Counted from the stretch's first letter, positions 32,858 through 58,200 are shown. The stretch is 64,000 bases of DNA from Candidatus Altiarchaeales archaeon (GCA_014727915.1 WJMO01000005.1:1-64000), one strand, 5' to 3'. Program-made: numbers and translations. Notes: generated by a model from the letters alone, not told the origin.

Positions 32858-32931
32858 CGGACCCGCTGGGATTCGAACCCAGGTCCGGGGATCCGAAGTC
32901 CCCAAGGATATCCAGACTACCCTACGGGCCC
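32858..32931 (-). tRNA. tRNA-Arg(TCG)
   Basis: Reverse complement GGGCCCGTAGGGTAGTCTGGATATCCTTGGGGACTTCGGATCCCCGGACCTGGGTTCGAATCCCAGCGGGTCCG folds to a cloverleaf; anticodon loop CT-TCG-GA; no intron; CCA not encoded. Confidence 0.95.
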
Positions 32932-41074: not shown

Positions 41075-41941
41075 CTATTCGTGCCTTATTATCGTGCTCT
41101 CCTTGTCTAACGGGTTATCAACGAATTTTTGCAGTGTCATCCTGCCCTCGGCCACTTCACCGAGGTTGGCCAGCACCGGCAGCAGGTTGTTGTTGTAGAA
41201 CTGCTGTTTACCCATTGCAGTAGACCGTGTGCTATGGCCCGCTTTGAGGGCTGCTTTACCAGCTGCTTGTATCAGCTCTGGCTGAGCCAGTCCTTCACCG
41301 GGCTCCTTCAATCCCAGACTGTCGGCCCTGTCCCATATCCTCCTGCCCTCAACCCTGGCGTCCTCTATGATCTGGCCCAATGTCTTGTCGCAGTCGAAGC
41401 ACTCCCTGAATCTCATGTTGTTTCTGACATGCTCTGGAACAACATCCGCAAGTTTCATATTTTCCAGACTAGTAATCTGGCCTGGGATATGATTCCCTAG
41501 AACCGGGCTGTCCCGGCCTTGCTGCTCCAATGGCACGACCCTCATCGGCGTGGGCGTCAACCTGATCTCTTGCTCTGCGGGTGCCTGCGCACCATTTTCC
41601 AGTGGCCTTCCCTCGCACGTGAACCTGAGCTCGCCCGTGCTCTGAGCCACCTGCTTCATTAAATCCCTGTCTCCCCGCTTTAAAGCTGCCGCCGCCCTCT
41701 CCAACGCCCCCCTAACCTCCTTCATGTCCTCGCTTCTGCCTGTGCTGTCCCGAATAGCCAACAGCGAACTATGGCCGATCTGAGCTGCTTTGTTCGCAAG
41801 TCCCTTGCCCCTTATCTGCATCAGCCCGGGGTGAAGTTCCCCTGATTCGGATGTTAGGTCAACTTCTATGGTCGTCCTGCCACGTTCGTCCACGTTCTTG
41901 CTGACGCCTCTTATGTGCCTACGCTCCAGGGTGACTGCCAT
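41075..41941 (-). CDS. Hypothetical protein, paralogous N-terminal domain family
   Basis: N-terminus LERRHIRGVSKNVDERGRTTIEVDL resembles the three upstream ORFs. Confidence 0.7.
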   Translation of the reverse strand: MAVTLERRHIRGVSKNVDERGRTTIEVDLTSESGELHPGLMQIRGKGLANKAAQIGHSSLLAIRDSTGRSEDMKEVRGALERAAAALKRGDRDLMKQVAQSTGELRFTCEGRPLENGAQAPAEQEIRLTPTPMRVVPLEQQGRDSPVLGNHIPGQITSLENMKLADVVPEHVRNNMRFRECFDCDKTLGQIIEDARVEGRRIWDRADSLGLKEPGEGLAQPELIQAAGKAALKAGHSTRSTAMGKQQFYNNNLLPVLANLGEVAEGRMTLQKFVDNPLDKESTIIRHE

Positions 41942-41985
41942 AAAAGCATATGGGAATCGATCAGTTAATAAATAGGGACTTACTC

Positions 41986-43458
41986 CTATCCTTGCCTGTG
42001 GGTGCTGCCCGTGCTCAGCTGCATTCTTGTGAATCCGTCCAATATGGCCTTCGCTCTCCCCTGGTAGTGCTCTCTGGTGCCCGGGGGCAGGGCTTGTGTC
42101 AGCTCTCCCGTGTATCCTGCGAAACTCTCAGGGCTCATCTGCACCGCAACGGTCAGGTCCGCTATGGTCGGGGGCCCCATAACAGTGGAATTCAAAGCCC
42201 TATCAGATGGCGTATTCCTCACTCTCTCGGACGCGTACTTCAACGCCCGGGCGAAACACAACTCACCCGGCTCGCTAGCCTGTATCGTGGGATTTCCCTG
42301 CGGATAGGCTTGTTTCGCCCTCTCGGCCTGGCCGCGGAGGCACTCTCCCCTAACCCATCCTGCGACCTGGTTGACGTAGCGGGCGGCGTTCATGTAGGCG
42401 CTCCTCGCGGTAGCAACCTGCTTTTCATCAGCGGTGGCAGACGTCCGCCTGGCCATCTGGTCCATTGCCACTTGGCTCAGGTGCTCGTCGAGGGTCAGAC
42501 CCCTGCGCTGGGCTGCCCGGGTCATCTCAGATATCCTCTGCCCTATGTAGAGCTTGACGGCATTCGGGTTCTCAAGCTGGGGGTTGGACTTCAGGAACTC
42601 CGCGTCGGAGGCTGGGAACTCCCTGCCACACGCCGCCTCGGCGATGCGCGCGCTCTGCCTCATGATCTGAGCCTGGCTTCCGGGGTTTTCCATGTCGCTT
42701 CCCCGGTTGGGACAGTTCTTCATGTCAACCGTTAGAACGCCGAGCTTCACATCCGACTCCGCGTTTGGAGCGGCTGGTATGTTCTGCTGTACTGCCCCAG
42801 CAGCTGGGACGCTGCCTGTGACCGGCGGGGCCTGGACTTCACGAGCCCGCGGGGGTGCTGGGGCAGCTGGAGGTGTCGGGGGATATCCTACTCTCTGAGG
42901 TGCGACCTGCTCTGGCATGGTCTGCGGGGGCAACACGACCGGCGGCTGTTTTGTCTGCCGGACTACCGGCGGCGGCTCGACCTCCCCCTCCCTATGCCCC
43001 GGTGCCGGCGGCGGCTTTGGAGACTGCCTGATTCCCGTCCTTGGAAGGGGCGGAGGCCTGATGTTTCTGGTGGAGGTCGCAGGCTGGTCTGATGTCACCT
43101 CCCTACCTTCTGATATGAAGCTGAAAGCGTAGCATTTGTCTACTGCAGACTTCCTCTCAGGGTTTATGACTCCTCCTGTTCTGAGGTCGGCGAGGGCGTC
43201 CCCGAAGAAGCTCTGGACCTTAAGCTGAGTGTCCAAGTCTGGGGTGTCGGTCTCCCCCTGGACTTTCTTTATTGCGGACAGTCCTCTCTGCCCCATTGCC
43301 TCGATCTGCTGGTGGGTGCTGCCCGGGGGAACGACCTCCTCGTTTCCCGGCCTCAGATGCACGTATAGTGTGAGCTTCTCCTGCCTGTCGTGGCCGTGGT
43401 CTCCGACTTGGGCTTTGACGCTCTCTATGTGCTCCTCCCTAATCTGTTTTACGGCCAC
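41986..43458 (-). CDS. Hypothetical protein, paralogous N-terminal domain plus Pro-rich linker
   Basis: IREEHIESVKAQVG..KLTLYVHL domain, Pro-rich linker, helical C-terminal domain; GTG start. Confidence 0.7.
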   Translation of the reverse strand: MAVKQIREEHIESVKAQVGDHGHDRQEKLTLYVHLRPGNEEVVPPGSTHQQIEAMGQRGLSAIKKVQGETDTPDLDTQLKVQSFFGDALADLRTGGVINPERKSAVDKCYAFSFISEGREVTSDQPATSTRNIRPPPLPRTGIRQSPKPPPAPGHREGEVEPPPVVRQTKQPPVVLPPQTMPEQVAPQRVGYPPTPPAAPAPPRAREVQAPPVTGSVPAAGAVQQNIPAAPNAESDVKLGVLTVDMKNCPNRGSDMENPGSQAQIMRQSARIAEAACGREFPASDAEFLKSNPQLENPNAVKLYIGQRISEMTRAAQRRGLTLDEHLSQVAMDQMARRTSATADEKQVATARSAYMNAARYVNQVAGWVRGECLRGQAERAKQAYPQGNPTIQASEPGELCFARALKYASERVRNTPSDRALNSTVMGPPTIADLTVAVQMSPESFAGYTGELTQALPPGTREHYQGRAKAILDGFTRMQLSTGSTHRQG

Positions 43459-43753
43459 CTTCAGATTCTCCAGTATGCTGTCTCTTTATATTCTCAAGCA
43501 GCTTGCTCTTCTCGTCGAGGTCGTGTATTATCTCCTCGTCCAGCCTAACCTTGATGTTCTCCACGTTCTTGGCGCCGAGCTTCTCCAACACCTCCGACGC
43601 GGGCTTGCCCGACAGCTTCCTGAGGAACTCAACGGTGTCCTCGTCCAGTTTTTCAGGGTCAACGTCGACTGTGATGTTCAGCTTGCCGGTCTCAGGGTCA
43701 GTGGACACCACAACCTCCCGGATACCCTCCTTCCTGATCTCAGGCTCCATCAC
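43439..43753 (-). CDS. Small hypothetical protein, paralogous domain family
   Basis: IRKEGIREVVVSTDPETGKLNITVDV. Confidence 0.6.
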   Translation of the reverse strand: MMEPEIRKEGIREVVVSTDPETGKLNITVDVDPEKLDEDTVEFLRKLSGKPASEVLEKLGAKNVENIKVRLDEEIIHDLDEKSKLLENIKRQHTGESEGGRKTD

Positions 43754-43816
43754 ATATATACATTAAAAGAGGGGGTTATTTAATGGAATCCCCACACCCA
43801 AGGGCACAGTCTCCCG

Positions 43817-46093
43817 TCACATATCTGCCTTCTCTGTCGTGGCTGCTTTCTCAGCAGATTCAGTTACTGGTTGCTCTGCTCCGCCGGTCAGGCTGGCTAG
43901 CGTGTGTGCCACCACCCTCTGATGGTCTTCCTGTTCCATGGACTTGAGCCGGTCCGCGCCGAGGGCGCTCTGGTACACCATCCCGGCAATCAGCCGCGGA
44001 TCGTCCTTGCCGGTCTTTTCATCCGGGCCGAGCTCCAAGTAGCCTAGCATCTGCTCGGCGCCGAGCCCCAGGGACCGAAGACGTCCTGATATCTCGGCTC
44101 CAATCTGCTCTTGTGTCGCGCCGGCTGGGATGGGATGGGCCAACCTGTCCAGCAACCTCTCACGCTCACCCCCAGCTCCTGATTCCCCTCTCATTCTCCC
44201 GCTTATCTGGGCGAACATCTTTCCGTGTTCCGGCTCCCCCATGGACTCCAGCCTTTCATGTCCAAGGGCCCGGGTGTAAACAGCCCTGGCTATCATCCTA
44301 GGGTCGTCTGCCGGGTATTCCCCTGGTTTGGTGCAGGCTTCGAACTCCTCCGGGGTTATGCCCACGGCCTTCATCCTGTCGGATATCTCTGCGGCGACCT
44401 GCTCCGGCGGGACGTCTGGTTTAACAGGGGATCTTATCCTCTGCTCGATGCTCTGTCTTTCCCCCTCACCCTGCTCGGGAGGCTTGTGTCCCATCTTGTG
44501 AAGTATGTCGTTCACCATTCTGGCGTGTTCTTCACCGGTCATCCTGCCCTCACCGCCTTCCCCTCCGTTGACCCGTTCAGCGCCTAGTGACTGGAGGTAT
44601 ATAGCGTGCGCCCTGTAAAGCGGGTCATCGGGTCTCATGTTCTCGTCTGGCGGGGTCTGAACTGCTTCCAGGAACCTCTCGGATGTTATCCCCCCACCCT
44701 GCAACCTCGACCCTATCTCCGCGGCAATCTCGTCATTGGACGTTCCGGCGGGTATGGTCTCGGCCATGACCCTCTCCCTCATCCTCTCATCCATGGCTGT
44801 GGAGGGCCCGGCATCCTGTCTTGGAGGGCTTGCACCATCCGATGTTTCCCCTGCTGATCGCATGCCCCCCACCATCGCCAGCTCGTCCTCTGATACTATG
44901 CTCCCCAGCTCCCCATCGGTCAGGGCGCTCTCCTTCCTCCTTGCGGCTGCCCTGAGCCTCACCTCCCTATGGGCCTTCTGGTGGGGTCCCAGCCTGAAGC
45001 CCCTACCAGTATTCGGCGTGTACTCGTAGGGTTCCTCTATGAATTCGTTGCCCACCCTGAAGGTGAGGCTGTAGCTCTGGTCCATGCCGTTACGGTCGCC
45101 TGTGAACTCCCCCGACTTGTTCTTCGTGCCGTCGACTGCCGCGTTCAGGAAGTTCTGCGCCTCCAACTGGGTTTGCAGCTCGAAACCATGCGCCTTCTTC
45201 CTTATGGATTCCAATGAAGCCGGCCCAAGTTCTTCAAGCCGGTCGCTTGTCGGCTCCGGCCTTGGAACCATAGACTCACAACCCTCCCCTAACGTGACAT
45301 ACAATTTGACACCGGTCGGTGTCTTCTCGGCTTTGACCTCCTCTATGTCATCCGGCCTAATCGCGTCCGGGCCCCTAACAAAATCCCCTGGCTCTCCCGC
45401 CATAGGGGCTGCTACTGGACTCTCTGTTTTCGCCGTATTCACATCCCCGGTTGCAGTAGGGTCCCCGCCTGGAACAGCCCGTCTCTCAGCGGTCGCATCC
45501 TGACCTTCCGCTGAAGTTCTTACCTGCTGGTCTACGTCGCGCCTATCCTGCCTTTCCGATGTTGGCGCATCAGAAGTTGGGGTGCCGGGTCCTGGTGCGG
45601 TCGTAGCCTCTGGGTTAGCCGCTGGCCTCGGCGTCTCTGATGTTGCAGGTGCCGCCCTCTCGCCCTTTTCTGGTGGCATGTCCGCTGATTTCCCCCTTCT
45701 CTCGCCTCCTTTCTGCGCGGGCTGGGGCATGTCTCCTTCCACGAACTCGATCGTCTTGCACCCCTGGTCTATCAGGCCTGCCGTGATAAACGACAGGTCT
45801 CCAGTATCTCTTATCTCGTTGCCTGCCAGGTCGAGGAACTCCGCCGCCCTCTGCCTCTCATGCAAGCTCCTGTCTTTTGGGGATGTTCGGGCGTGTATTG
45901 CACTCAGCGAGTCCGCGCCGAGGTGTTCGAACCTGTCTGCCGGCCCCAAACCCGCGAACTCAGGACCCGGAGGAATAACACCCGCCTTCGGGTCCAGGTG
46001 AACGCGGATTGCCAGCTTACCATCCTCTCCCACTTCAGTGCGCACGCCCTTGATGTCCTCAGGCCTCAGCTGCTGGATCCTCTTGGCCATCAT
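43817..46093 (-). CDS. Hypothetical repeat protein (2x domain A, 3x domain B)
   Basis: Two copies of the family domain and three ~80-aa AEIxxR...DDP..A..Y..ALG.ER repeats. Confidence 0.8.
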   Translation of the reverse strand: MMAKRIQQLRPEDIKGVRTEVGEDGKLAIRVHLDPKAGVIPPGPEFAGLGPADRFEHLGADSLSAIHARTSPKDRSLHERQRAAEFLDLAGNEIRDTGDLSFITAGLIDQGCKTIEFVEGDMPQPAQKGGERRGKSADMPPEKGERAAPATSETPRPAANPEATTAPGPGTPTSDAPTSERQDRRDVDQQVRTSAEGQDATAERRAVPGGDPTATGDVNTAKTESPVAAPMAGEPGDFVRGPDAIRPDDIEEVKAEKTPTGVKLYVTLGEGCESMVPRPEPTSDRLEELGPASLESIRKKAHGFELQTQLEAQNFLNAAVDGTKNKSGEFTGDRNGMDQSYSLTFRVGNEFIEEPYEYTPNTGRGFRLGPHQKAHREVRLRAAARRKESALTDGELGSIVSEDELAMVGGMRSAGETSDGASPPRQDAGPSTAMDERMRERVMAETIPAGTSNDEIAAEIGSRLQGGGITSERFLEAVQTPPDENMRPDDPLYRAHAIYLQSLGAERVNGGEGGEGRMTGEEHARMVNDILHKMGHKPPEQGEGERQSIEQRIRSPVKPDVPPEQVAAEISDRMKAVGITPEEFEACTKPGEYPADDPRMIARAVYTRALGHERLESMGEPEHGKMFAQISGRMRGESGAGGERERLLDRLAHPIPAGATQEQIGAEISGRLRSLGLGAEQMLGYLELGPDEKTGKDDPRLIAGMVYQSALGADRLKSMEQEDHQRVVAHTLASLTGGAEQPVTESAEKAATTEKADM

Positions 46094-46300
46094 AGAAAAC
46101 TGGGAAACACACCCCTAAATACCGCATATTCAAAATTATTCAAAGAATTTTCAAAATAATCCTGACTTTTCCCCCTATAGTTGTTGTTTGCTGCTTTTAT
46201 ACCCTATTGGCGTAATATTATAGGTTTCAGATGCACCTGAGTCTGCCATTGCACTGGCAGAATGCAGGGAAGTATGTGAAGATCTGGGTGTGCAAATAAA

Positions 46301-46927
46301 ATGTACAAGATAGTTACAGTTGAGGACACGGTCAGGGTCCCGCCGGCTAGGTTCAGCGAAGACCTGGAGACCGTGATAACGCAGGAACTGGAGAACATGG
46401 TAGTCGGCAGGATAGACAAGAGCCTTGGAGTGGTGCTGGCTGTCACAGGCATCGACGAAGTCGGCGACGGGAAGATCATACTAGGCGACGGCGCAGTATA
46501 CTACAGCGCAAGATTCAAGATACTAGTCTACGAGCCAATGGTCAACGAGGTAGTCGAGGGCGAGGTCACTGAGGTCACGGAATTCGGCGTGTTCGTCGGG
46601 TTCGGCCCCATCGACGGGCTCATACACGTGTCCCAGATAACCGAGGACTTCATGAGCTACGACCAGAAGAACAGCTCGTTCGTGGGCCGGGAATCAAACA
46701 AGATACTCAAGGTAGCGGATGTCGTACAGGCCAGGATAGTCACGGTGAGCATGAAGTCCCGGGCCACGGAGTCGAAGATCGGATTGACGATGAGGCAGCC
46801 CTACCTGGGCAAGCTGGAGTGGATAGAGGACGACCGGAAGAAGCTCGAGGAGAAGATAAAGGCCGAAGACAACAAGGAAAAGGAGAAGGAAAAGAAGAAG
46901 GGCGGCAAGAAGGAGGGTGATAAATGA
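46301..46927 (+). CDS. rpoE1: DNA-directed RNA polymerase subunit E' (Rpo7)
   Basis: VRVPP, GDGAVY, S1 domain FGPIDGLIHVSQI, IGLTMRQPYLGKLEW. Confidence 0.97.
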   Translation: MYKIVTVEDTVRVPPARFSEDLETVITQELENMVVGRIDKSLGVVLAVTGIDEVGDGKIILGDGAVYYSARFKILVYEPMVNEVVEGEVTEVTEFGVFVGFGPIDGLIHVSQITEDFMSYDQKNSSFVGRESNKILKVADVVQARIVTVSMKSRATESKIGLTMRQPYLGKLEWIEDDRKKLEEKIKAEDNKEKEKEKKKGGKKEGDK

Positions 46928-47100
46928 GGGCCTGCAAGTCATGCATGCGGTTGAGCGAGGAGGAGCGCTGTCCAGTCTGCGGCTCCAACACGAGCCAGTA
47001 CTGGAGCGGCTACTTCGCAGTATTGGATCCTGAGACCTCACAGATAGCGAAGAAGATGGGCATAAAGTCCCCCGGCCAGTACGCGCTCAAGGTGAGGTAG
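46924..47100 (+). CDS. spt4: Transcription elongation factor Spt4 (RpoE'')
   Basis: My translation: MRACKSCMRLSEEERCPVCGSNTSQYWSGYFAVLDPETSQIAKKMGIKSPGQYALKVR (58 aa, absent from the ORF track). Confidence 0.95.
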   Translation: MRACKSCMRLSEEERCPVCGSNTSQYWSGYFAVLDPETSQIAKKMGIKSPGQYALKVR

Positions 47101-47105
47101 ATTGC

Positions 47106-47594
47106 ATGGAGTTGACGCCCCGGCTCAGGGAAGAGCTGAAGAAGCCCCTCGGCGACGTAGTGACGGAAACATCCAAGATTCCCGTTGACGCGCCGCTCAT
47201 ATGCGTCGGTGACACCGCATCGGACACGATGCTCTCAGCGGGCTACAAGCCCAAGCTCCTAGTCTATGACGGCAGGACCGGAAGGCACGAGATCGGCGTG
47301 TCGGAGACGATAAGCTCATACGATGCCGTGGAGCGAACCGTCGCTAACCCGCCCGGAAAGCTTGAGGAAGGCGTTTTCGAGCTGTTCAGGGAGGTCTTGG
47401 ATGGCGGTGGGCCTGGCAGGGTCTACGTCGAAGGCGAGGAGGATTTGACCGCGCTCGCGGCCATAAGGGAGGCTGCAGTCGGTTCGGTGGTCGTCTACGG
47501 GCAGCCGGGCGAGGGCCTGGTAGTCGTGGACGTCAACGAGAAAACGAAAAATAGGGTTAACAAGATAATCGAGGATATGGAAGATGGAAGTTGA
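47106..47594 (+). CDS. GTP-dependent dephospho-CoA kinase (DUF359)
   Basis: LKKPLG, VGD, NPPG, VEGEEDL, YGQPGEG. Confidence 0.92.
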   Translation: MELTPRLREELKKPLGDVVTETSKIPVDAPLICVGDTASDTMLSAGYKPKLLVYDGRTGRHEIGVSETISSYDAVERTVANPPGKLEEGVFELFREVLDGGGPGRVYVEGEEDLTALAAIREAAVGSVVVYGQPGEGLVVVDVNEKTKNRVNKIIEDMEDGS

Positions 47595-48090
47595 TATGAT
47601 CGAGGACAAGGAGAACCCCCTCCTAAACAGGAGGGAGATACGGTTTAAGGTGTCCTACCAGGGTCCGACCCCTGCCAGGCAGGATGTGCGGAGCAAGATA
47701 ATTGCGATGCTGAACTTGGACAAGGAACTCACCCTGTTGGACAAGCTGGATCCTCAGCAGGGGTCCCAGGTTGCGCTTGGATACCTTAAGTCCTACGGTG
47801 ACAAGGCTGCGATGTCCATAGAGCCGGAGTACCTGTTGAAGAGGAACTTCGAGGTCAAGGAGGAGCCGAAGGAAGACGGTGGCTCGCCTCCCTCAGGTGA
47901 TGATGGGGGCAGCCCGGACGGAGAGGGCGAAAGCGGCGGTGACAAGGCCGCGGCTGAGGGCGGAGACGCTAAGTCTGAGAAGTCTGGGGCAGGCAAGCCG
48001 GATGAGAAGGCGGAGAAGGATGATGAGAAAGGCGAGGATAAGGCTAAGGCAGGCTCTGAAGACGAGACCGGCCCTAAGGAGGGTGAGTGA
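47584..48090 (+). CDS. rps24e: 30S ribosomal protein S24e with long acidic tail
   Basis: [22 protein letters not shown]. Confidence 0.93.
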
Positions 48091-48323
48091 TGGCTAAAGG
48101 CAAGAAGAAACGCAGGGAAAGGGAGAGGAAGGAGAAGGTGCCCAAGAGGAAGAGCGCCAAGTGGAAGGTATATGATGTCTCAGGAGAGGCTGTTAAGAGG
48201 AGTCTGAAATCATGCCCCAAATGTGGTGACGGCGTTTTCCTAGCGGACCATAAGACGCGCATGACCTGCGGGAAATGCGGTTACACGGAGTTCACCCGAA
48301 AGGGAGAAGAGGAAGAAAAATAG
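48090..48323 (+). CDS. rps27ae: 30S ribosomal protein S27ae (eS31)
   Basis: [23 protein letters not shown]. Confidence 0.95.
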
Positions 48324-48358
48324 GAGCACTTAACTGCATTCACTCCCAATGTTTTCCA

Positions 48359-48907
48359 ATGAGGGTCGTGGGTTTGGACCTGGCCGGAAGCCCTAAGAAC
48401 AGCACAGGATTCTGCATTTTGGAGGTTGAGGGCGGGAAGACCGTCCATACCCGGCTGATACACTCTGACGAGGAGATACTGTCGGATGTCACGTCCGCTG
48501 ACCCGGACCTCGTGGCAGTTGACGCGCCCCTCATCTACGAGGGTGTGCGCAGGAACTGCGATGACCTGCTTCGCGAATATGGTGCCCTGCCCGTGACCTT
48601 GAAGGGCATGGAGGTTCTTGCAGAACGCGGGAGAAAGATCGCATCCGACCTGAAGCGATTGGGCCTGGATTATATCGAGGTTTTCCCTACTGCGTCCGCG
48701 AAGATACTGGGAGTATACAGCAAGAACGACTTCACACTCCAGAAGAACATGATGGCATTGGACCTGAAGGGGGACCTGAACACCAAGATACTATCAAGGG
48801 ACGAGTTGGACGCGGTCCTCGCCTCGTTGACGGGATTCCTCTATCTCCAGGGCCAGTCCGAGCCGGTCGGCGACGAAAACGGCCTCGTTCACATACCTCT
48901 CGTCTGA
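48359..48907 (+). CDS. DUF429 RNase H-like nuclease family protein
   Basis: VVGLDLAG, AVDAPL, IEVFP, DELDA. Confidence 0.85.
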   Translation: MRVVGLDLAGSPKNSTGFCILEVEGGKTVHTRLIHSDEEILSDVTSADPDLVAVDAPLIYEGVRRNCDDLLREYGALPVTLKGMEVLAERGRKIASDLKRLGLDYIEVFPTASAKILGVYSKNDFTLQKNMMALDLKGDLNTKILSRDELDAVLASLTGFLYLQGQSEPVGDENGLVHIPLV

Positions 48908-48943
48908 TGCTATAAAAGCGTCTAATACCATAGTTGAAACGTA

Positions 48944-50317
48944 ATGGGCGAATACGATTTCATCGTCGTGGGCGGGGGGCCGGCTGGAATGTTCGCCGCA
49001 TACGCCCTATCAGAAGCTGGAAGGAAGGTTCTGTTACTCGATGAGGGCAAGAACGTTTCAGACCGGCATTGTCCCATGGCCGAGTCTGGCGCATGCGTAA
49101 ACTGCAGGCCCTGCGATGTTATGACCGGACTGGGGGGTTCCGGGCTTTACAGTGATGGCACCCTGAACTTGAGGCCTGACATCGGCGGCGACCTCAGTCA
49201 GCTGACTGGCAGTGATGACCGGGCCTGGGAGCTGGTCGAACGTGTGGACGAGATATTCCTGCGTCATGGGGCTCCCGATAGGCTATACGGGGGGGACGAG
49301 GAGAAGATCGCCGAGTTGAAGAGGCGCTGTGCCTCTGACGACATCAAGTTCATAGACATACGTCAGCGTCACATAGGCACGGAGAACACTCCTGCGGTCA
49401 TCGAATCCATTGCGGAGCATCTGAGGGGTTCCGGAGTTGATATCATGGTGTCCACCAGGGTTGAGGACATCATAGTGGAGGATGGCCGGTGTGTCGGGGT
49501 CAAGACCGTCAAGGAAGAGTTCAGGGCTGGCGGCGTTCTACTGGCTCCTGGCAGAGTAGGGGCAAAGTGGGTTGATGAGCTGGTTGCTGAGCACGGTATA
49601 AAGGCTGTTTTCGGCCCTATCGACGTGGGGGTGAGGGTTGAGGTTCCAGCGTTGATAATGGAGTCCGTCATCGAGGTCAACCATGACCCTAAGTTCCACA
49701 TACGAACCCCAACATATGACGATTTTGTCCGTACATTCTGCACTAACCACCAAGGATGGGTTGTGAAGGAGAGCTATGATGGCCTGGTCGGAGTTAACGG
49801 GCATAGCATGCTCAAGGACATGTCTGGCAACACTAACTTCGCCTTCCTGGTGAGGGTGGCTTTGACTGAGCCAGTTGAGGACACGGTCGAATACGGCCGC
49901 GCGATAGCCGACCTGGCCACCACAATAGGGGGTGGGAAGCCGATACTACAGCGTCTCGGAGACCTCAGGCATGGCCGCAGGTCGCACCCCCATAACATCG
50001 CGGATAACCTGTTCGAGAACACGTTGAAGGATGTCACGCCCGGGGATGTTTCGATGGCGTTGCCTCACCGGATCGTCGAGGACATACTAGAGGGGTTGGA
50101 GAAGTTGAACGATGTGATACCTGGGGTGAACTCGGATTCCACATTGGTCTATGCCCCGGAGCTGAAGTTCTACAGCATGTGCGTGGAGGTAGGGTCCAGG
50201 ATGGACTCTAGCATCCCTGGATTGCACGTTGCAGGTGATGGGGTGGGGTTGAGCAGGGACATAGTTAATGCGGCTGCGACTGGTTTGCTGGCTGCTGAGG
50301 GAATGCTGCCACGATGA
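48944..50317 (+). CDS. FAD-dependent oxidoreductase
   Basis: GGGPAG, Cys cluster, [23 protein letters not shown]. Confidence 0.9.
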
Positions 50318-50823
50318 ACGCGTCCGTTTTGAGGCTGGGTCACAGGCACAGCAGGGACAAGCGCATCAGCACACATGTCGCGTTGACTGCCAGGGCGTTC
50401 GGCGCCTCCAGGATAGTCTATGATGGTCGTGCTGTTGATGTTAAGGAGAGCGTCGATGAGATAACCTCCTCATGGGGTGGTGACTTCAAGGTCGAGTTCA
50501 CGGAAGGCTACCGTGATTTCATCAACTCCTTCGAGGGCTTGAAGGTTCATCTCACAATGTATGGCCTGCCCCTGGATGATGTGGTGGCCGACTTCGGCCT
50601 TGAGGGGGATATTCTGGTTGTGGTCGGAGGTGCGAAGGTGCCTTCGGATGTGTTTGAGCTGGTGGACTACAACGTTGCAGTGGGTAATCAACCGCACTCG
50701 GAGGTCGCGGCTCTTGCAGTGTTCCTTGACCGCATATTCGGGGGTGGTGAGCTGGACAGGGACTTCAAGGGCAGGATGAGAATTGTCCCTCAGAACCGCG
50801 GGAAGAAAGTATTGGAGGGATAG
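50314..50823 (+). CDS. trm56: tRNA (cytidine(56)-2'-O)-methyltransferase
   Basis: [34 protein letters not shown]. Confidence 0.96.
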
Positions 50824-50828
50824 TCGAC

Positions 50829-53800
50829 TTATTCGTCTCCTCGGTCGTCGTCTTCGCTTCCCCCGGTTATGCCATAGTCTATCTGGCCTGACTCGTCTCG
50901 GTCTTCAAGCATGTCCTCCAACTGCCTTCCGACGCTCTTTGTGCGCTGCCTACCGAAACCTCCCATGTAGGTCATGTGTTCCTTGAGTGTTTGCATTCCT
51001 GCTCTGTCCTCACCCATCATCTCAGCGCCTAAATCCCCCACCTTCTCCTGGGCTGGGGATACGCCAGTCGAACCTGAGACTTCGCTATCTGGTGCTGCCT
51101 GGCTCGCCTGGGGTCCTGAACCCTCCTCGGTTTCTGATGGCTGTGCGGTTCCCGCATCTGCTGATGCGGTTGGCGCAGGCTCAGATGTCGGCGTTGGCTG
51201 CTGGCTCGCGTCCGGCTCTTGCGCAGGCTGTGATGTTGCGGTCGGCTGCTGGGTTGCATCAGGTTCTGGGGTTGATGGTGTGGTGTCAGGCTGTTGTGCG
51301 CTGGTCTCTGCCGCTTCGGGTTCCGGCGTCGTTGGCTGCTGTCCGTCGCCTGCTGCGGGTGCTCCCTGCTGGCTCTGGTCTGGCTGCGCCTCCGCCCCGC
51401 CCTCGGCTGCCTGGGCTTCGTTGGCTCTCATGTGGTTGAGTGTTGACTGTTTCAAAGCGTCGTTCTGGTCGGCGTTCATGCTCACCGCCTGGTCGTGTGT
51501 TAGGGCTCTCGTGTACGCTGTTGATGCGGTCTGCCCTCCGCTCCCGTATTCCGGGGCCTCGCCGGCTGGGGTGTCCACGAACTGTTGGAAGTCATCAGCG
51601 CTCACTCCCGCCTCTTGCATCTGCTGGGCCATCTCCGCCCCCTGCCGGTCTGTTTCAGCGTCTATCCTCGGATGGGGCCTCTGCTGCTGTTGTCCTCCGG
51701 TCCCCGCCTGTCCGCCCCGTCTGCTCTGGCTTCCGGTTGAACCTGCGGTCGTGGATGTTCCCCTACCATCCCTGCGCGCGCTGTATGCTGTCACAACGCT
51801 TTGGCCCGCGCCCCAGGCGCCGCGCACTCCCATCTTCCCAAGCCTCCATCCCAGGGGGAATGAGCTCAAACCCCCGGTCGCGGCGAACTTCAATGCTTCC
51901 ATGGGTGCGTGTATAAAAGCAATCTTGGCGGCTGCCACTCCCAGGTCCATGCCAATCCCTGCGGCTTTCCCTAGCACGAACCCTATCCTCGAGCTTGCCC
52001 TGTCCTGCCCCCTATAGCTTGTGACGGTATCGCGTATCCCCGTGGTTGACATGCCATCGAATACTCCGCTGAAGAACGTGCTCTCCCTTACGCCCCCCCT
52101 GACGGTGTTCAGCCCTTCCGATAGTTGTCCCGGGTCTGTTCCGAGCTTCCGAGCGGACAGTTGCATCTGCCGCTGTCTTATCTTGTTCAAAGTCGCCTCT
52201 CTTGTCGCCGGGTTCTGGAGGGCTGCGTTCACTCCCGCGGTCCCGGAGGGCATCATCGCGCCTCCCGGGTAGTCTGTGCGGCCGACGTCCTGGACGGCAT
52301 CCTGCCAGCTGGCTCCGCCTACGGCCTCCAGCAACTGGCTGTCGCTGGCGTTCCTCAGGTCTCCGACAGTGTTTATTCCTGCTTGCTGGAGGTTAGCCAC
52401 GGTCGTGTCGGAGTTAAGCCCCAGTGATTCCATGACCTCCCTGTTGTATCCGCTGTCTATCCCCAGGCCCTGGGCTGACTGCCCGATTGCCCTTCCAATA
52501 CCCGTCACTTCCATGACCTTGCTTACCGTGTAGGCCGATATTCCCAACCCCACCAGGGTCCCCGCTCCCATCCCTCCTATGCCTGCTATAGTGCCTATTA
52601 TGGCGAGCGCCTGGACTGTCATCGCCCATTTGCCGAGGCCCCATGCGGTCCCGATCACGCCCGCGCTTGCCATGGCTCCTAGGATGTTGCTTGCGACGTA
52701 TGATAGGCCTGCTCCTACGTTGTATATGCCCATTATGGACTTGCCAACAAGAGTCTCCGACCTGTAGAATGGTGTTTTCGGCTGCTGGGAGGCTGTGCTT
52801 GGCTGACTGCTTGGCCCGCCAGTGGTCTCTCCTAATCCCCTGCCTAGTCCGAAGCCCCATCCCCCGACCCATCTTCCGAAGGACCAGAGCCCGCTTCCAA
52901 CACCGAACATCCGCCCCTGGCGTGCGAACCATTTGCCCCACCTCTGCCTTCTCGCTGCTGTCCTCTTCTGATACCTCTCCGCAAAGCCTTTCATGCCTGG
53001 CATCTTGGAGAGCACCCTACTTGCTTTAGCTCTCTGGCCTACCCTAGCCCTTCTTGATATGGACTTCAATTCGCTGGTTCCCAGGCCGCCCTGCTCTGCC
53101 TCGTCACCTCCCATGAACATCTTTGAGATGTTCCGGCCCACGAATGACCCGCTCATGCCGATCGCACCCAACGCACCCGCATTATAGGACCACTTGGCCG
53201 CTCTCAAAAGGCTTCTCCCTATCATGTTCCCTGTCTTGGGCAGGGCTCCTCCTATGCCCATGCCTATGAACATGCCCAGCGGACCCCCAGCCAACGCGCC
53301 GATGGCTCCGCCTATAACCATTCCCATACCGCGTTTTCTGACCTGTCCCACACCCCACATGGCAGCCTTCTGCACGTGCTTACCAAATCCTAGCCCTACT
53401 CCCATGCCTATCGCAAGCCCGAGGGGGCCTCCCAGGGCGAGTCCGATGCCGGCTGATATGGCGATGCCCATCGCCCGGTGACCCAGGTATCCTCCGACGG
53501 CCACTCCCGCTCTCTTAGCCCATCCCGCGCCATAGTATGCGCCAAGTCCGATGCCGTATCCGGCCCATCCCAGCCCGTAACCGGCATAGTATGCTCCTTT
53601 GCCTGCGAGCCACGCGCCCTTGCCGGCCAGCCACAGTCCAGCGCCAGCAGCCATTCCCGCCACACCGATCAATGCTCCCAGACCGTATCCTCTCCCCAGC
53701 AGTCCTACGCTCCCTCTCATCAGAGAACCTCCCAGTCCGCTCAGACCCTTCGTAGCAGCCCAGCCTATGCCCATACCCAATCCCTTTAGTCCTGCCCAAC

Positions 53801-55160
53801 CGTATGACAGGGCACCGCTGCCAAGCTTACCTGCTGCGCCGCTGACAGTCTTCCAAGCCTGCCCAACCCGTCCTTGCTCCCATCTCTTAGCAGTCTGGCT
53901 CCACTTCCGCCTCCTCTCCGATGGCCTCTTACCCGGTTTCTTGCCGCTTTTAGGCCCTCCCGGCCGTTTTTTCATCTTCTTCCCGAGCCTTGATATGCTT
54001 CCCACCCCTGCTGACAGTCCGGCGGCGACCACGGCTTCCGCGCTCTGAGCCTGCATCATCTGCCCCGCCCCGACCATTGCAACACCTGCGAAGCCGGGGG
54101 TCAGCTGCCCCGCCCCAGATAGTATTGCCCCTATCATCGCAAGCGCTCCTGTGACTATCAAGGGGGAGATGATTATCATGCACATCAGGGAGATGGCCGC
54201 GAAAACGGTGAAATTCGACTCTACGGTCGGCCGGGCCTCCATCACTATCCCCGTTATCAGCACCCACATTGCCATGACGACATTCACCATAGCCCATGTA
54301 AGGCTGTACTTCAGGAACGTGCGCCCTATGCTCTTGGTGAAGTCCCACAGGTACAGGAGGCAGGTCAGAGGCATCATTATCGCCATCAGATGGATTATTG
54401 TATATCTCAACATGATCATCGTCACCGCCAGCAGGCCTACTATCTGACCGCAGCAGAAGGAGAAAAGATAGGCCTTGTTGTCCTTGCCTATCCCCTTGTA
54501 CGAGGATGCTATGCTCTTCCCAAAGTCCGGGCTGGTTGTGACCTGCTGGTATAGGCCGTCGATCCTGTTATAGCAGTGGTCCGGCACATCATATACTTCC
54601 GCGCATGTAAGCGGGGGCGGCCCGGGGTTGGCTATGGGCGGGGGGTCCTTCATTATCACGCCGCCTATCAGGCTGACCGTGATCTGGTATGAGATGTCAA
54701 TGAGCATCTGGTAGAAGTAAGGGGAGAAGGGCACTATGATAAGTGCGAGCAGCAGCCTCTGGAGCTGCGCCTTTGCGGCCGCTCTCTCTCCCGGGCTGTT
54801 GGAGAATATCATCATCTTTATGGCGGTTATGAGTATTGCGAATATGACCAGGGGCATGATCCACCGCATCACCATCCCGGCCATTAACAGCGTGTTGCCC
54901 TGGTTTATGACGGGCCTTCCAAGGGTTTCATTGCTTAGGCTCCAGGGTATGAGGTTTATCAAGAGGGCGGAGTCCCCCATGAAAGTATGCAATATGAACG
55001 CGTAGAAGTCTATGACCAGATTGGAGAACCATTCGCTAACCCCCTTTATCACGTCTCCTGAGATGGCTGCGGCACTCTGTGAAAAAACCAGTATCAACAG
55101 TATTGCTGACGCAGCTTTAGCCTTCTTCGCAGAATAAACCGTCTCTAAGGATGTTTTCAT
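50829..55160 (-). CDS. Large VirB6/TrbL-like polytopic membrane protein with Gly-rich and acidic C-terminal extensions
   Basis: N-terminal ~370 aa with about 7-8 TMs, including SPGERAAAKAQLQRLLLALII and MPLT.LLY...TK..G..F; then Gly zippers, an HhH-like motif and a Q/P/E/T-rich tail. Confidence 0.65.
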   Translation of the reverse strand: MKTSLETVYSAKKAKAASAILLILVFSQSAAAISGDVIKGVSEWFSNLVIDFYAFILHTFMGDSALLINLIPWSLSNETLGRPVINQGNTLLMAGMVMRWIMPLVIFAILITAIKMMIFSNSPGERAAAKAQLQRLLLALIIVPFSPYFYQMLIDISYQITVSLIGGVIMKDPPPIANPGPPPLTCAEVYDVPDHCYNRIDGLYQQVTTSPDFGKSIASSYKGIGKDNKAYLFSFCCGQIVGLLAVTMIMLRYTIIHLMAIMMPLTCLLYLWDFTKSIGRTFLKYSLTWAMVNVVMAMWVLITGIVMEARPTVESNFTVFAAISLMCMIIISPLIVTGALAMIGAILSGAGQLTPGFAGVAMVGAGQMMQAQSAEAVVAAGLSAGVGSISRLGKKMKKRPGGPKSGKKPGKRPSERRRKWSQTAKRWEQGRVGQAWKTVSGAAGKLGSGALSYGWAGLKGLGMGIGWAATKGLSGLGGSLMRGSVGLLGRGYGLGALIGVAGMAAGAGLWLAGKGAWLAGKGAYYAGYGLGWAGYGIGLGAYYGAGWAKRAGVAVGGYLGHRAMGIAISAGIGLALGGPLGLAIGMGVGLGFGKHVQKAAMWGVGQVRKRGMGMVIGGAIGALAGGPLGMFIGMGIGGALPKTGNMIGRSLLRAAKWSYNAGALGAIGMSGSFVGRNISKMFMGGDEAEQGGLGTSELKSISRRARVGQRAKASRVLSKMPGMKGFAERYQKRTAARRQRWGKWFARQGRMFGVGSGLWSFGRWVGGWGFGLGRGLGETTGGPSSQPSTASQQPKTPFYRSETLVGKSIMGIYNVGAGLSYVASNILGAMASAGVIGTAWGLGKWAMTVQALAIIGTIAGIGGMGAGTLVGLGISAYTVSKVMEVTGIGRAIGQSAQGLGIDSGYNREVMESLGLNSDTTVANLQQAGINTVGDLRNASDSQLLEAVGGASWQDAVQDVGRTDYPGGAMMPSGTAGVNAALQNPATREATLNKIRQRQMQLSARKLGTDPGQLSEGLNTVRGGVRESTFFSGVFDGMSTTGIRDTVTSYRGQDRASSRIGFVLGKAAGIGMDLGVAAAKIAFIHAPMEALKFAATGGLSSFPLGWRLGKMGVRGAWGAGQSVVTAYSARRDGRGTSTTAGSTGSQSRRGGQAGTGGQQQQRPHPRIDAETDRQGAEMAQQMQEAGVSADDFQQFVDTPAGEAPEYGSGGQTASTAYTRALTHDQAVSMNADQNDALKQSTLNHMRANEAQAAEGGAEAQPDQSQQGAPAAGDGQQPTTPEPEAAETSAQQPDTTPSTPEPDATQQPTATSQPAQEPDASQQPTPTSEPAPTASADAGTAQPSETEEGSGPQASQAAPDSEVSGSTGVSPAQEKVGDLGAEMMGEDRAGMQTLKEHMTYMGGFGRQRTKSVGRQLEDMLEDRDESGQIDYGITGGSEDDDRGDE

Positions 55161-55210
55161 GGCGGCAGCCCAGTAAAAATATGGGTTCCAAACTATTTAA
55201 TTATAATATA

Positions 55211-58200
55211 CTATGCCTTACCGTCGAATTCGTCCCTTGCCTTCGCGAAGTCCAGGGCCTTCCCACTGAAGAACCTGTAGGACATTACAGCCGCGAAGGC
55301 TATCAGCAACACCCACAGGTTGTCCATCAGGTAATCGCAGAATTCCGGGGGCTTGTCCACTGGGACGGTGTCCACGAACGGGACTGACCTCTTGAAACCA
55401 TGGTCGTCGTGGCAGGTTATGACTGCCGTGATCAGCCGGTCCACGGGGAACATTATCTCCTCGTTAAGGTCGTACCATCCAGTGTATTCTATGTACGGGT
55501 GCTGGAACTGTATGTAGAAGTGCTTGCAGTATGGGTCGTACCCGTCTTCTGAGCTCTGGTTCGTGCATACGTTAAGCACTGCCGGCCATACCTTTATTAT
55601 CCTGGAGTTCTCGTTGAAGTCCGATTCCAGGTAGAACTCTTCAGGCGGGGGCTTGTTGACCCTCACCGTAAGGCCTCCGCTTCCGGCTCCGTGTTGTGCT
55701 CCGTCGGGGCAGATGGGAGCGTCTCCGAAGGCGGGGAAGTCCTGGCTCTGGAAGGGGGTGTAGACTTCAATGTCGGTGAATCCTAGCTCGTACTCTGTGA
55801 GCGAGTTGCTGTCTAGTATGAGCGTGTACGACTGTGGCGCAATGCCCTTCGGCTCGCATTCTTTGAGGTATTCTATATTGCATTTGCTCTCTCCGAAGTT
55901 CCATTTGTACCTGAACTGGAAGTGGTCCAGCCAGTAGGCTTTGAACTCCTCCTCGGCGCAGTGGTTCCTGTACTTGCTGGGCACTCCCTCGCATGGGACC
56001 AGCCCAGACAGAACCCACTTGTTCAGGTCCTTGCAGGTCTCGTTGTCGATGGGGTAGAGGTTTTCGAACTCCTCCTTGTATTCGCAGTCGCACCTGCCCC
56101 CCTCGCATACCAGATCCGCTATCTGGTTGCACATTGGCGGGCAGTCCTGGATAGAAGAGCACTGGTAGTCGACGTCCCTCCACTCTTCGCTGTCGCAGTA
56201 TAGCGCGTACCTCACATACGCTTTGCCTATGGGCTTGCTCTTCTTCAGGAATCTCACGTTGGTCCACTCGTCAACCCTCCAGTTGTCGTCGTCCAGGCCA
56301 CGCTCAACATCCTGCATCCTCCAGTAAAGCGCTGCGAAGTCGTAGTAGTGCGGTTCGTCCTCGTGGAAGTTCCTTAGCAGGCCGATGTTGGAGGATATCT
56401 CGTATATGTAGTTGTAGCATTCAGCACGGCCCTTGTCAACAAGCCATAGGGGGTGCTTCCAGGTGTACTGTGAGCCGTATGCGCTGAACTGGTCTATGAA
56501 GAAGTGGCTCTTCTTGGATGGGTTGTACGTCCACCTGACATACAGTGGGTCGCTTGTCTCGTATTCCAAGTCTATCTCCTGGCCTGGCGGGGTCAACCGG
56601 GTCTTGTAGCATTCCTTGGCCAGGTCGAGGAGCCTTGCGTTCTCCTCGGTGACCTCCTTCCAGTCCTGGGGAAGTGTCGACTGCAACGCGGTCCCGTCAT
56701 GCCAGGGGTAGTACTTCTTCGGCGTGAAGTCCATCATAAGGTATTGTTCGTAAGCGTCTTCTATGGTTAGTGTGAACCCGTCGAATAGGTCGTATACGAA
56801 TCTTCCGGGGCTCCTTGTCGACTCCTCGTCCACGGCTTTGAAGTTCAGGTAGGCGAAGGCCCAGTTCTCGTTGCTGCTGTCCTCGTGTCCGTGCTGTATC
56901 GTCCCGTTCACCTTTATCACCGCCTCGGAGTTCCCCGAGTCTATGGGGTTCTCCACCCTCAGATGGTCTCCGTAGTCGTCAGCCCATATCCTCGAATAGT
57001 CCTTCATCTTCTCGTAGACTATCTCCCACTCGCACGGTCCCTTGTCCTTCGTAACCAGGTAGTCTGCGAGGTTTACGCTGTCGTGGTGCCAGCACCCCCA
57101 GCAGGTGTAGTCGCACCTGCAGTCGTGGTAGTAGTAGCATTCCAGCTCTATGGGCACCCCGTTGCATGTGGTCCAGTAGGTGCACTCGCACCACGAGTGC
57201 GCGGGCGGGTTGTCGTTATCCCACTGGAAGGGTATGGGGTCCTGGGTGTATGGGGTCCTGGGCTGGTTGCCCCGGCAACAGCAGGGCGGCGTGAAGTCCC
57301 CGGCGTACACTTCATTGTGGGTAACGAACCATTCCGTCTCGCATGTTATGTCGTTGACTATGATCTCCTCCCACTGCTCCCACCTGTAGCTGATGACCTT
57401 CTCCTCGAGCCTGCTGCAACCCTGCCAACCGCACTGTTTGACCAGCAGCTCCCGTTTCATCTCGTTTATTACGCTGTACTTGAGCCCCACGTTCAGGTAC
57501 CTGGTCTCCGGGCTCAGCTGCACCTCCTGCTTGTCCTCGTGCATGACCGAAGCAGGCGCCGGCGGCTTCTCGGTCAGCAGGTTGTCCTTTCCATATAACT
57601 TGTTGCTTGTCTTGGCCTTGCTGAAAGATTGCACGTCAACTACGCCGTGGTTCTCGTCGTATTCCGTTACCATGATGTCCATCTGGGCGAACGGCTCCTG
57701 CCCGGGGTTTCTCGGGTATGTGTGAACCTCTTTCCTCTGCATCCTACCGCATGATTTCGGGATGTGGGCTGCGGCGTCGACGGCGTAGGGGTCCACTGGC
57801 ATTCCATCGACTACCTTCCCTCCTGTGAATCCTCCATGCCCTGACATGACCACGTTGCACTGGTGCGCTCCACCGGACACGTCAGACCTCTTGCACGTTG
57901 TTGGTTCCATCGAGTTGCAGGTCCCTGGCATGCAACCCATGCATCCTCCGTCGACCTCCCCTCCGCCTGCCATGTCGCATCCTTTGATCCCATCCTCCTT
58001 GTCCCAGTCGCCTCTCATCGCCCGCCCGCAGTTGCACTCCTCTGATATGCACTCCAGCGTCCGGCCGTCCGGCCCGTTGAGGAACGACTTGTACGGTTTC
58101 ACGGTGGCGTCTATGCCCCAGAAGTCGCCGTTGCAGACCGGCAGCGGCTCCCCATACTGGTACTGGTCTCCGAAGTTCCGGGCCTCGAACCATATGGGGC

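Follow-up and report, generated by a model that had tools for sequence, protein, structure and literature searches.

We examined a 64,000-nt stretch of DNA from Candidatus Altiarchaeales archaeon (GCA_014727915.1 WJMO01000005.1:1-64000; hereafter the window), which opens a 511-kb contig in a genome of 1.81 Mb and 13 contigs. Two of its proteins, the soluble P0001 and the membrane protein P0002, share a small helical module that, judged from the sequences, is homologous between them. It occurs three times in P0001 (copies R1, R2 and R3) and once in the long tail of P0002, whose N-terminal membrane domain resembles VirB6. The two loci lie 4.7 kb apart in this 1.8-Mb genome, separated, as an earlier note on this DNA had stated, by housekeeping genes. 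Among the genes of the window are eIF2-gamma, an Rpo7-like gene, S24e and aTrm56, which mark the genome as archaeal.

A profile hidden Markov model (HMM) built from the three P0001 repeats alone finds P0002 amino acids (aa) 1167-1245 at 23.1 bits, matching profile positions 17-95 of 98 and thus keeping 79 of the 98 positions in register. When the whole of P0002 was shuffled, 0 of 1000 sequences scored above 5.9 bits, and when only aa 1151-1260 were shuffled, 0 of 1000 exceeded 6.6 bits, compared with 29.9 bits for the real piece. Across the genome, scanned as 23,511 six-frame open reading frames (ORFs) of at least 40 aa, P0002 is the single non-self match below an expectation value (E) of 0.01 (E 5.3e-5), and the runner-up has E 0.8. 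Eight columns are invariant across the four copies (A, E, G, E, A, Y, L, M). The P0001 repeats are 33-38% identical to one another and 18-24% identical to the P0002 copy, which is therefore the outgroup and the most divergent of the four. At the DNA level the copies have a codon-register identity of 40-52%, and blastn returns no significant match between them. With DNA similarity gone and the P0002 copy so divergent, the duplication is either old or fast-diverged and not a recent gene conversion. Chance or compositional resemblance between proteins with no true common domain might be suspected from this low identity and from a BLASTP match of P0001 to P0002 that gives no better than E 0.003 (30% identity across 64 aa), but none of the 2000 shuffles comes within 16 bits of the real score, and a single genome-wide match at E 5e-5 that is aligned in register over 79 of 98 positions excludes it.

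These results together indicate that the sharing of the module is real, in agreement with the earlier note, which had placed three copies in P0001 and one in P0002 and had named an alignment no better than shuffled controls as the outcome that would speak against it. The observed score of 23.1 bits stands clearly apart from the shuffles (at most 6.6 bits in all 2000), and P0002 is the sole other match in the genome. The peptides quoted in that note are present in the sequence, and the boundaries drawn from the profile fall within about 30 nt of those it gave. The domain that it proposed exists, but its length is nearer 90-95 aa than the ~80 aa suggested. Coordinates of the module copies and of the other features are collected in Table 1.

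Table 1. Coordinates of the features discussed, counted from the first letter of the window.
Feature	Window position	Strand	Description
P0001	43817..46093	-	758 aa, soluble; N-domain, linker, N-domain, linker, 3 x module
Module copy R1 of P0001	44492..44773	-	aa 441-534; Gly/Glu-rich insertion ahead of last helix
Module copy R2 of P0001	44177..44455	-	aa 547-639; copy used for folding
Module copy R3 of P0001	43871..44161	-	aa 645-741
Module copy in P0002 tail	51411..51689	-	aa 1158-1250; low-complexity linkers on either side
P0002	50829..55160	-	1443 aa; signal/anchor, VirB6-like polytopic domain, Gly-rich hydrophobic segments, module, Pro/Thr/Gln-rich stretch, conserved C-terminal motif
VirB6-like membrane domain of P0002	53928..55160	-	aa 1-411, including pilin-like hairpin aa 98-148
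N-domain copy 1 of P0001	45731..46078	-	~115 aa, second orphan domain (first 121 aa)
N-domain copy 2 of P0001	45035..45373	-	aa 240-354
P0011	43439..43753	-	104-aa ORF, barely more than one N-domain (match ~43520-43741)
P0004	41986..43458	-	490 aa; N-domain 43099-43455, Pro-rich linker, helical C-terminal part; without module
P0005	41075..41941	-	288 aa; N-domain 41597-41941 and C-terminal part; without module
Housekeeping block between the loci	46301..50823	+	Rpo7-like, DUF359, S24e, DUF429, FAD oxidoreductase, aTrm56; syntenic in relatives
P0003	55211..61936	-	2241 aa; conserved neighbour on the upstream side of P0002; signal peptide, M23 peptidase aa 80-183 (E 8.7e-14), very Cys-rich, hydrophobic stretch near C-terminus (by eye)

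The module is predicted to fold as a bundle of four or five helices. AlphaFold2 (AF2), run on R2 with an alignment of four rows, gives a best model with a mean predicted local distance difference test (pLDDT) score of 83.5 and a predicted template modelling (pTM) score of 0.71, and places helices at positions 3-8, 17-30, 35-40, 52-71 and 74-88. All four copies are acidic, with isoelectric points (pI) of 4.5-5.4 and net charges of -3 to -8, which disfavours nucleic-acid binding and fits a protein-binding surface. We infer that the module is a small helical protein-binding unit and not a nucleic-acid binder.

As the earlier note had also claimed, the module belongs to no recognised family. Whole P0001 and P0002 match 0 Pfam families at E<=0.1 and 0 NCBIfam families, no PHROG match covers the module, and the single copies R2, R3 and that of P0002, scanned at E<=5, yield one irrelevant match (Histone_HNS_N, E 0.065). 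Structure searches with the R2 model give no Foldseek match in the PDB at E<=0.001 (best E 2.4), and a wide VIA-align search reaches at best Z 5.4 with generic helical bundles. The best profile match among PDB sequences, to 3dfg_A, would make the module a RecX-like three-helix repeat but is not significant (E 0.031 over 49 positions); neither protein nor any single copy matches Pfam RecX, RecX is absent among the best 50 VIA-align matches, and the candidate was dropped. In the ESM Atlas, P0001 aa 547-745 and P0005 have no usable feature match, and the structures retrieved have TM-scores below 0.4 on low-confidence models; MazG-like and ArdC-like matches there fall below threshold, and we name no family from them.

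We also searched for the module more widely. Against 1.84 billion representative proteins, the four-copy profile retrieves five at E<=0.001, two of which are P0001 and P0002 themselves. The other three (P0007-P0009) match the first 25-33 positions only, through short motifs of the 'GITPEQ / MGITPxxY' type in unrelated repeat proteins, and were rejected. One of them, P0008, is a 2068-aa ankyrin-repeat protein with an A-E-x-x-L-x-x-M-G-I-T-P-x-x-Y motif ahead of each ankyrin block; this motif resembles the module's first two helices, probably because such helix-turn-helix packing is common and not because the two are homologous. Among 40 relatives of the same genus, family and order (completeness 57-97%), 0 contain a match to the module profile and 0 a match to P0001, and in a collection of 5.8 billion clusters P0001 finds itself only, as a cluster of one member on one contig. 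Viral contigs searched with profiles of the module and of the N-domain described below, and metagenome contigs searched with P0001, gave no relative, and a search of sequencing runs with the P0001 gene listed none. When weak extra copies were sought in P0003, P0004 and P0005, all scores were at or below the level of shuffles, as were those of the tails of the four other P0002 paralogs of this genome and of the P0002 orthologs in three relatives (G001, G002 and G013). By these searches, the module is a sequence family that has not been described before, known from one genome only, and as far as these collections go it occurs only in P0001 and P0002.

P0001, a protein with a net charge of about -36, heads four same-strand tandem genes, P0001-P0011-P0004-P0005 (window 41075-46093, minus strand), which all open with a second orphan domain, the N-domain. 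Their spacing is operon-like: two of the junctions are gaps of 63 and 44 nt, and at the remaining one the genes overlap by 20 nt. Run genome-wide, a profile of just the two N-domains of P0001 matches P0004 at E 5.9e-11, P0011 at E 2.6e-4 and P0005 at E 6.2e-3. The N-domain is found in 0 of the 40 relatives and 0 of 60 other genomes of the phylum, and has no match in the PDB. None of the four proteins has a transmembrane-like segment (highest 19-aa hydropathy <=0.97), and P0001 has no signal peptide. The description of P0001 as an orphan repeat protein thus holds in that it belongs to no known family, but it heads a paralogous operon of four genes with a second shared domain. All four are ORFans that combine a constant N-domain with variable C-terminal parts. 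The block has a G+C content of 0.60 against about 0.55-0.56 in its flanks; the tail of P0002 is equally raised, so the composition may only reflect amino-acid content. The block has no integrase, no tRNA at its borders and no flanking direct repeat, just short chance-like matches. The sole Rfam match in the window at the gathering threshold is a tRNA at 32858-32931 (minus strand), away from these borders.

The N-terminal part of P0002 is a polytopic helical membrane domain of the ~300-400 aa that characterizes VirB6/TrbL proteins. Its hydrophobic segments (aa 89-124, 127-170, 229-274, 285-313 and 312-353) coincide with long helices in an AF2 model of aa 1-430 that is of moderate quality overall (pLDDT 65.1, with core helices at 80-90). 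In Foldseek searches with this model, TrwI/VirB6 chains fill ranks 1-7 (best 7o3v_J, E 0.082, probability 0.99, TM-score by target 0.47), and VIA-align places DotA first (Z 9.2, 223 aligned, root-mean-square deviation (rmsd) 5.2) and TrwI second (Z 8.1, 233 of 261 aligned, rmsd 5.7); these are weak statistics for a VirB6 fold match, with Foldseek E-values above 0.001 and VIA-align Z values of 8-9 that are common for helical models. TrwI/VirB6 of R388 and DotA of Legionella Dot/Icm are solved inner-membrane channel components of type IV secretion systems (T4SSs) and, like P0002 aa 1-411, are polytopic and helical, but they have no sequence match to P0002 in the PDB and no module, and P0002 has no VirB4 neighbour.

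By sequence, P0002 does not match Pfam TrbL (PF04610) at E<=0.1, and the P0002-family profile finds no PDB sequence. When the domains of eight family members were isolated, one of the eight matched TrbL/VirB6 (E 6.2e-4) and seven weakly matched Pfam T4SS_pilin; for the first 430 aa of P0002, the T4SS_pilin match covers the hairpin at aa 98-148 with E 0.0018 and 18.7 bits, below the 26.6-bit cut-off. The genome also has short stand-alone ORFs that match the family profile at these hairpin positions. The family is present in 38 of the 40 relatives, mostly in several copies. In this genome (G000) the VirB6-like domain occurs in five paralogs, whose tails measure about 290-1170 aa; two of these paralogs, on contig C3, adjoin a PrgI-family protein (E 6.1e-9) and a TraG/VirB4-type P-loop ATPase (PF19044 E 4.1e-26, AAA_10, DUF87; G000:C3:64827-67130). 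Because of the fold-search ranking, the weak family matches in Pfam and the paralogs beside a VirB4-type ATPase and PrgI, the term VirB6-like, used for P0002 from the start, is moderately supported for the N-terminal domain. We keep it as a reasonable working label that falls short of demonstrated membership. The C3 locus (G000:C3:63211-76866, L016) combines the two paralogs with a 399-aa charged protein, the PrgI-like protein, the VirB4/TraG-type ATPase and a pilin-like ORF of 127 aa, and resembles a compact set of T4SS-like genes.

The tail of P0002 begins with a strongly basic stretch directly after the VirB6-like domain, and further candidate hydrophobic segments follow at aa 491-513, 563-593, 612-640 and 845-876, with a marginal one at aa 1059-1077. 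Several other elements were seen in this tail. Residues 918-966, off the module, match phrog_34844 (E 0.006), and aa 920-948 (window 52317-52403, minus strand) give sub-threshold helix-hairpin-helix (HHH) matches to IMS_HHH_1 (E 0.019), RNA_pol_A_CTD (E 0.03) and HHH_5 (E 0.2), which hint at a DNA-binding element but are not significant. At aa 1384-1424 (window 50889-51011, minus strand), a motif ..TY.GG..R.....QLE.MLEDRDES is kept in the same-genus ortholog, where the rest of the tail is near-unalignable, making the extreme C-terminus a candidate for a truly conserved contact site of the tail. A paralog at G000:C12:248556-252920 (L017:7557-11921, minus strand; locus L017 = G000:C12:243853-252920) has, by eye, tail repeats of its own of ~50-60 aa (W-N-S-L/D..Q..Y.. 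type) that are unrelated to the module by profile; in this family, each tail seems to consist of helical repeats peculiar to it. Single-sequence searches of the other four paralog tails against the proteins of the genome detected nothing, although such a search would also miss the relation between P0001 and P0002; the ortholog tails of G001, G002 and G013 gave self matches only in their own genomes by the same insensitive method.

We compared gene order in three relatives with sufficiently long contigs, G001 (same genus) and G002 and G013 (same family); the other orthologs lie on short contigs. All three have the order RsmB, eIF2-gamma, PIN_9, Rpo7-like, DUF359, S24e, DUF429, FAD oxidoreductase, Trm56, P0002 ortholog, P0003 ortholog, M50 and ALS small subunit. 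PIN_9 adjoins the Rpo7-like gene in 3/3 and the 5-kb four-gene block is missing there, so among the four genomes the block is specific to this one. The P0002-P0003 pair (window 50829-61936, minus strand; L022, L023/L024, L025/L026) occupies the same chromosomal site in 3/3 relatives examined, between Trm56 and the M50 peptidase, with no VirB4-type ATPase nearby. By this synteny it is a conserved chromosomal pair and not a recent mobile insertion. The presence of a peptidoglycan-type M23 peptidase on a huge secreted archaeal protein, P0003, is odd in itself. The G001 ortholog of P0002 (1036 aa) aligns with it in three parts: the membrane domain, at 42% identity; a segment close to P0002 aa 1032-1110; and, at the very end, ~40 aa that include QLE-x-MLEDRDES. 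The module-bearing stretch aligns only nominally. Since the block is missing in three syntenic relatives and their ortholog tails are without the module, both are, by these comparisons, restricted to this lineage.

What might the shared module do? A functional link between the P0001 and P0002 loci, through a docking module or a common binding partner, is plausible on sequence grounds. We tentatively favour the reading that the module is a protein-protein interaction unit coupling P0001 to P0002, to which we give a little less than even confidence. In its favour we count the homology of the four copies, their predicted fold and acidic character, the soluble nature of the proteins of the four-gene block, the T4SS-like context of the P0002 family, the finding of module and P0001 in this genome but in 0 of 40 relatives, and the mere 4.7 kb between the loci. 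The module would join P0001 to the P0002 tail either by like-with-like association or via the same third partner, and P0001 would serve as adaptor, regulator or substrate of a channel-like apparatus. The link could extend to the three tandem paralogs of P0001 through the shared N-domain, and the four-gene block would have arrived, or survived, in this lineage only, just as P0002 bears the tail module in this lineage only. TcpH of Clostridium perfringens plasmid pCW3 combines a VirB6-like N-terminal membrane domain with a large C-terminal one, which makes contact with other transfer proteins, and so offers a mechanism of the proposed kind.

Several observations weigh against such coupling. P0001 and P0002 belong to separate transcription units, parted by housekeeping genes on the plus strand, and the window has no match to PF19044, the VirB4-type ATPase family, whose matches above cut-off in the genome are at C3:65481-66386 and C3:200928-201740. 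Tails of the P0002 family diverge so fast that orthologs within a genus barely align, and the similarity retained by the module could thus be due to recent history and not to selection for a common partner. Because module and block are known from one genome, their co-occurrence rests on that genome, and with the block inserted and the ortholog tails without the module, the closeness of P0001 and P0002 could reflect local duplication as well as function. Between the VirB6-like domain and the module the tail has four or five hydrophobic segments, and the sequence therefore does not tell on which side of the membrane the module sits. Finally, two of the five AF2 models of R2 are confident (pLDDT 83.5, 82.3, 64.9, 61.4 and 51.7), and the alignment behind them consists of four paralogous rows. 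The interpretation in the earlier note is thus supported in part, and three of its proposals are not established: that the loci form one system, given that the P0002-P0003 pair is conserved in 3/3 relatives that have neither the P0001 block nor a module in their ortholog tails; that the module is cytoplasmic, given the intervening hydrophobic segments; and that it serves in docking.

The main rival, and a strong one, is a purely historical account: local duplication or recombination carried the module from one to the other of two neighbouring fast-evolving genes, and the copies then diverged, so that they now do unrelated jobs or act as structured spacers, in loci that do not form one system. 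The simplest way for genes 4.7 kb apart to come to share a domain is duplication over a short range, and this account also fits the ortholog tails of the 3/3 syntenic relatives, which have no module and are otherwise barely alignable, the position of the P0002 copy as outgroup to the P0001 repeats, and the tails of the other four paralogs, which share nothing detectable with the proteins of the genome. However, all four copies keep core residues and a confidently predicted fold despite lost DNA similarity, implying purifying selection on each, and P0001 retains three of them in tandem. On balance we consider the purely historical account somewhat unlikely.

A more specific version of the coupling proposal, which we regard as doubtful, is that the acidic module is a recognition tag by which an archaeal chromosomal T4SS-like channel, a VirB6-like protein with a long tail, recruits lineage-specific soluble proteins, with P0001 as a trivalent adaptor and the N-domain marking cargo or accessory factors. 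A limited literature search turned up no T4SS-like system in Altiarchaeota; we do not claim that none is in print.

Unlikely, in our view, is that the four-gene block is the remnant of an unsampled plasmid or virus, and that the highly acidic repeats of P0001, as copies of the tail module of the host channel, act as a decoy or hijack the apparatus by competing for the partner of the P0002 tail. Such an origin would fit the site of the block, inserted between two genes (PIN_9 and Rpo7-like) that adjoin in 3/3 syntenic relatives, and likewise the ORFan status of all four genes, their raised G+C and the modular architecture in which a constant N-domain is joined to variable C-terminal parts. Yet the block has no integrase, border tRNA or flanking direct repeats, there is no PHROG match of note, neither domain profile matched the viral contigs, and the P0002 tail has the same raised G+C. 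We find it improbable, finally, that the P0002 tail has its end outside the cell and that the apparatus exports P0001, with the module serving in surface assembly or cell-cell contact. Counting all five candidate hydrophobic segments after the VirB6-like domain, an odd number, would place the module outside, and the neighbouring P0003 is huge, secreted, Cys-rich and equipped with an M23 peptidase domain. Against this, P0001 has no signal peptide or hydrophobic segment, the module is nearly free of Cys in contrast to the clearly extracellular P0003, and basic stretches are generally found on the cytoplasmic side of membranes (the positive-inside rule), so the one that follows the VirB6-like domain suggests that the tail starts in the cytoplasm.

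VirB6-like proteins with long variable tails are a system of known kind. By architecture, the nearest described parallel for multiple VirB6 paralogs with long divergent extensions is the rvh system of Rickettsiales, which has five RvhB6 proteins (RvhB6a-e) of 674-1154 aa with a VirB6/TrbL domain of ~413 aa (PMC2653234); in Anaplasma, VirB6-4 measures 4322 aa and has a very long C-terminal extension (PMC7648143). There too, several paralogs occur per genome (five here) and their extensions diverge. The Rickettsiales proteins differ in being bacterial and in being recognised as TrbL/VirB6 by sequence, and the passages on which we draw report no extension module in common with a neighbouring soluble protein. 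Among archaea, CedA is VirB6-like, and its N-terminus is reported to be homologous to its pilin (PMC9905601). CedA/TedA with the pilins CedA1/TedC likewise form an archaeal, chromosomal T4SS-derived apparatus, and the hairpin at P0002 aa 98-148 together with the stand-alone pilin-like ORFs fits the homology between the CedA N-terminus and its pilin; CedA/TedA differ in being described, in the passages on which we draw, without 1000-aa tails. What is new here is the module family, the N-domain, the four-gene block and its insertion relative to syntenic relatives.

Module, N-domain and four soluble genes all come from a single uncultured genome, and this may remain an isolated case. More useful as a lead, perhaps, is a broader pattern: across the family, a VirB6-like protein is accompanied, at one fixed place in the chromosome, by a giant Cys-rich protein with an M23 peptidase domain. 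If the module does couple soluble proteins to a VirB6-like tail, P0001 and P0002 would be a testable pair for the choice of partners or substrates by archaeal T4SS-like machines, and if it acts as a recognition tag, it would give a first handle on how such an apparatus in Altiarchaeota recruits them. Coupling of this kind would, in addition, reveal the purpose of the long hypervariable tails on VirB6 proteins that occur as multiple paralogs, a question that the Rickettsiales paralogs pose as well.

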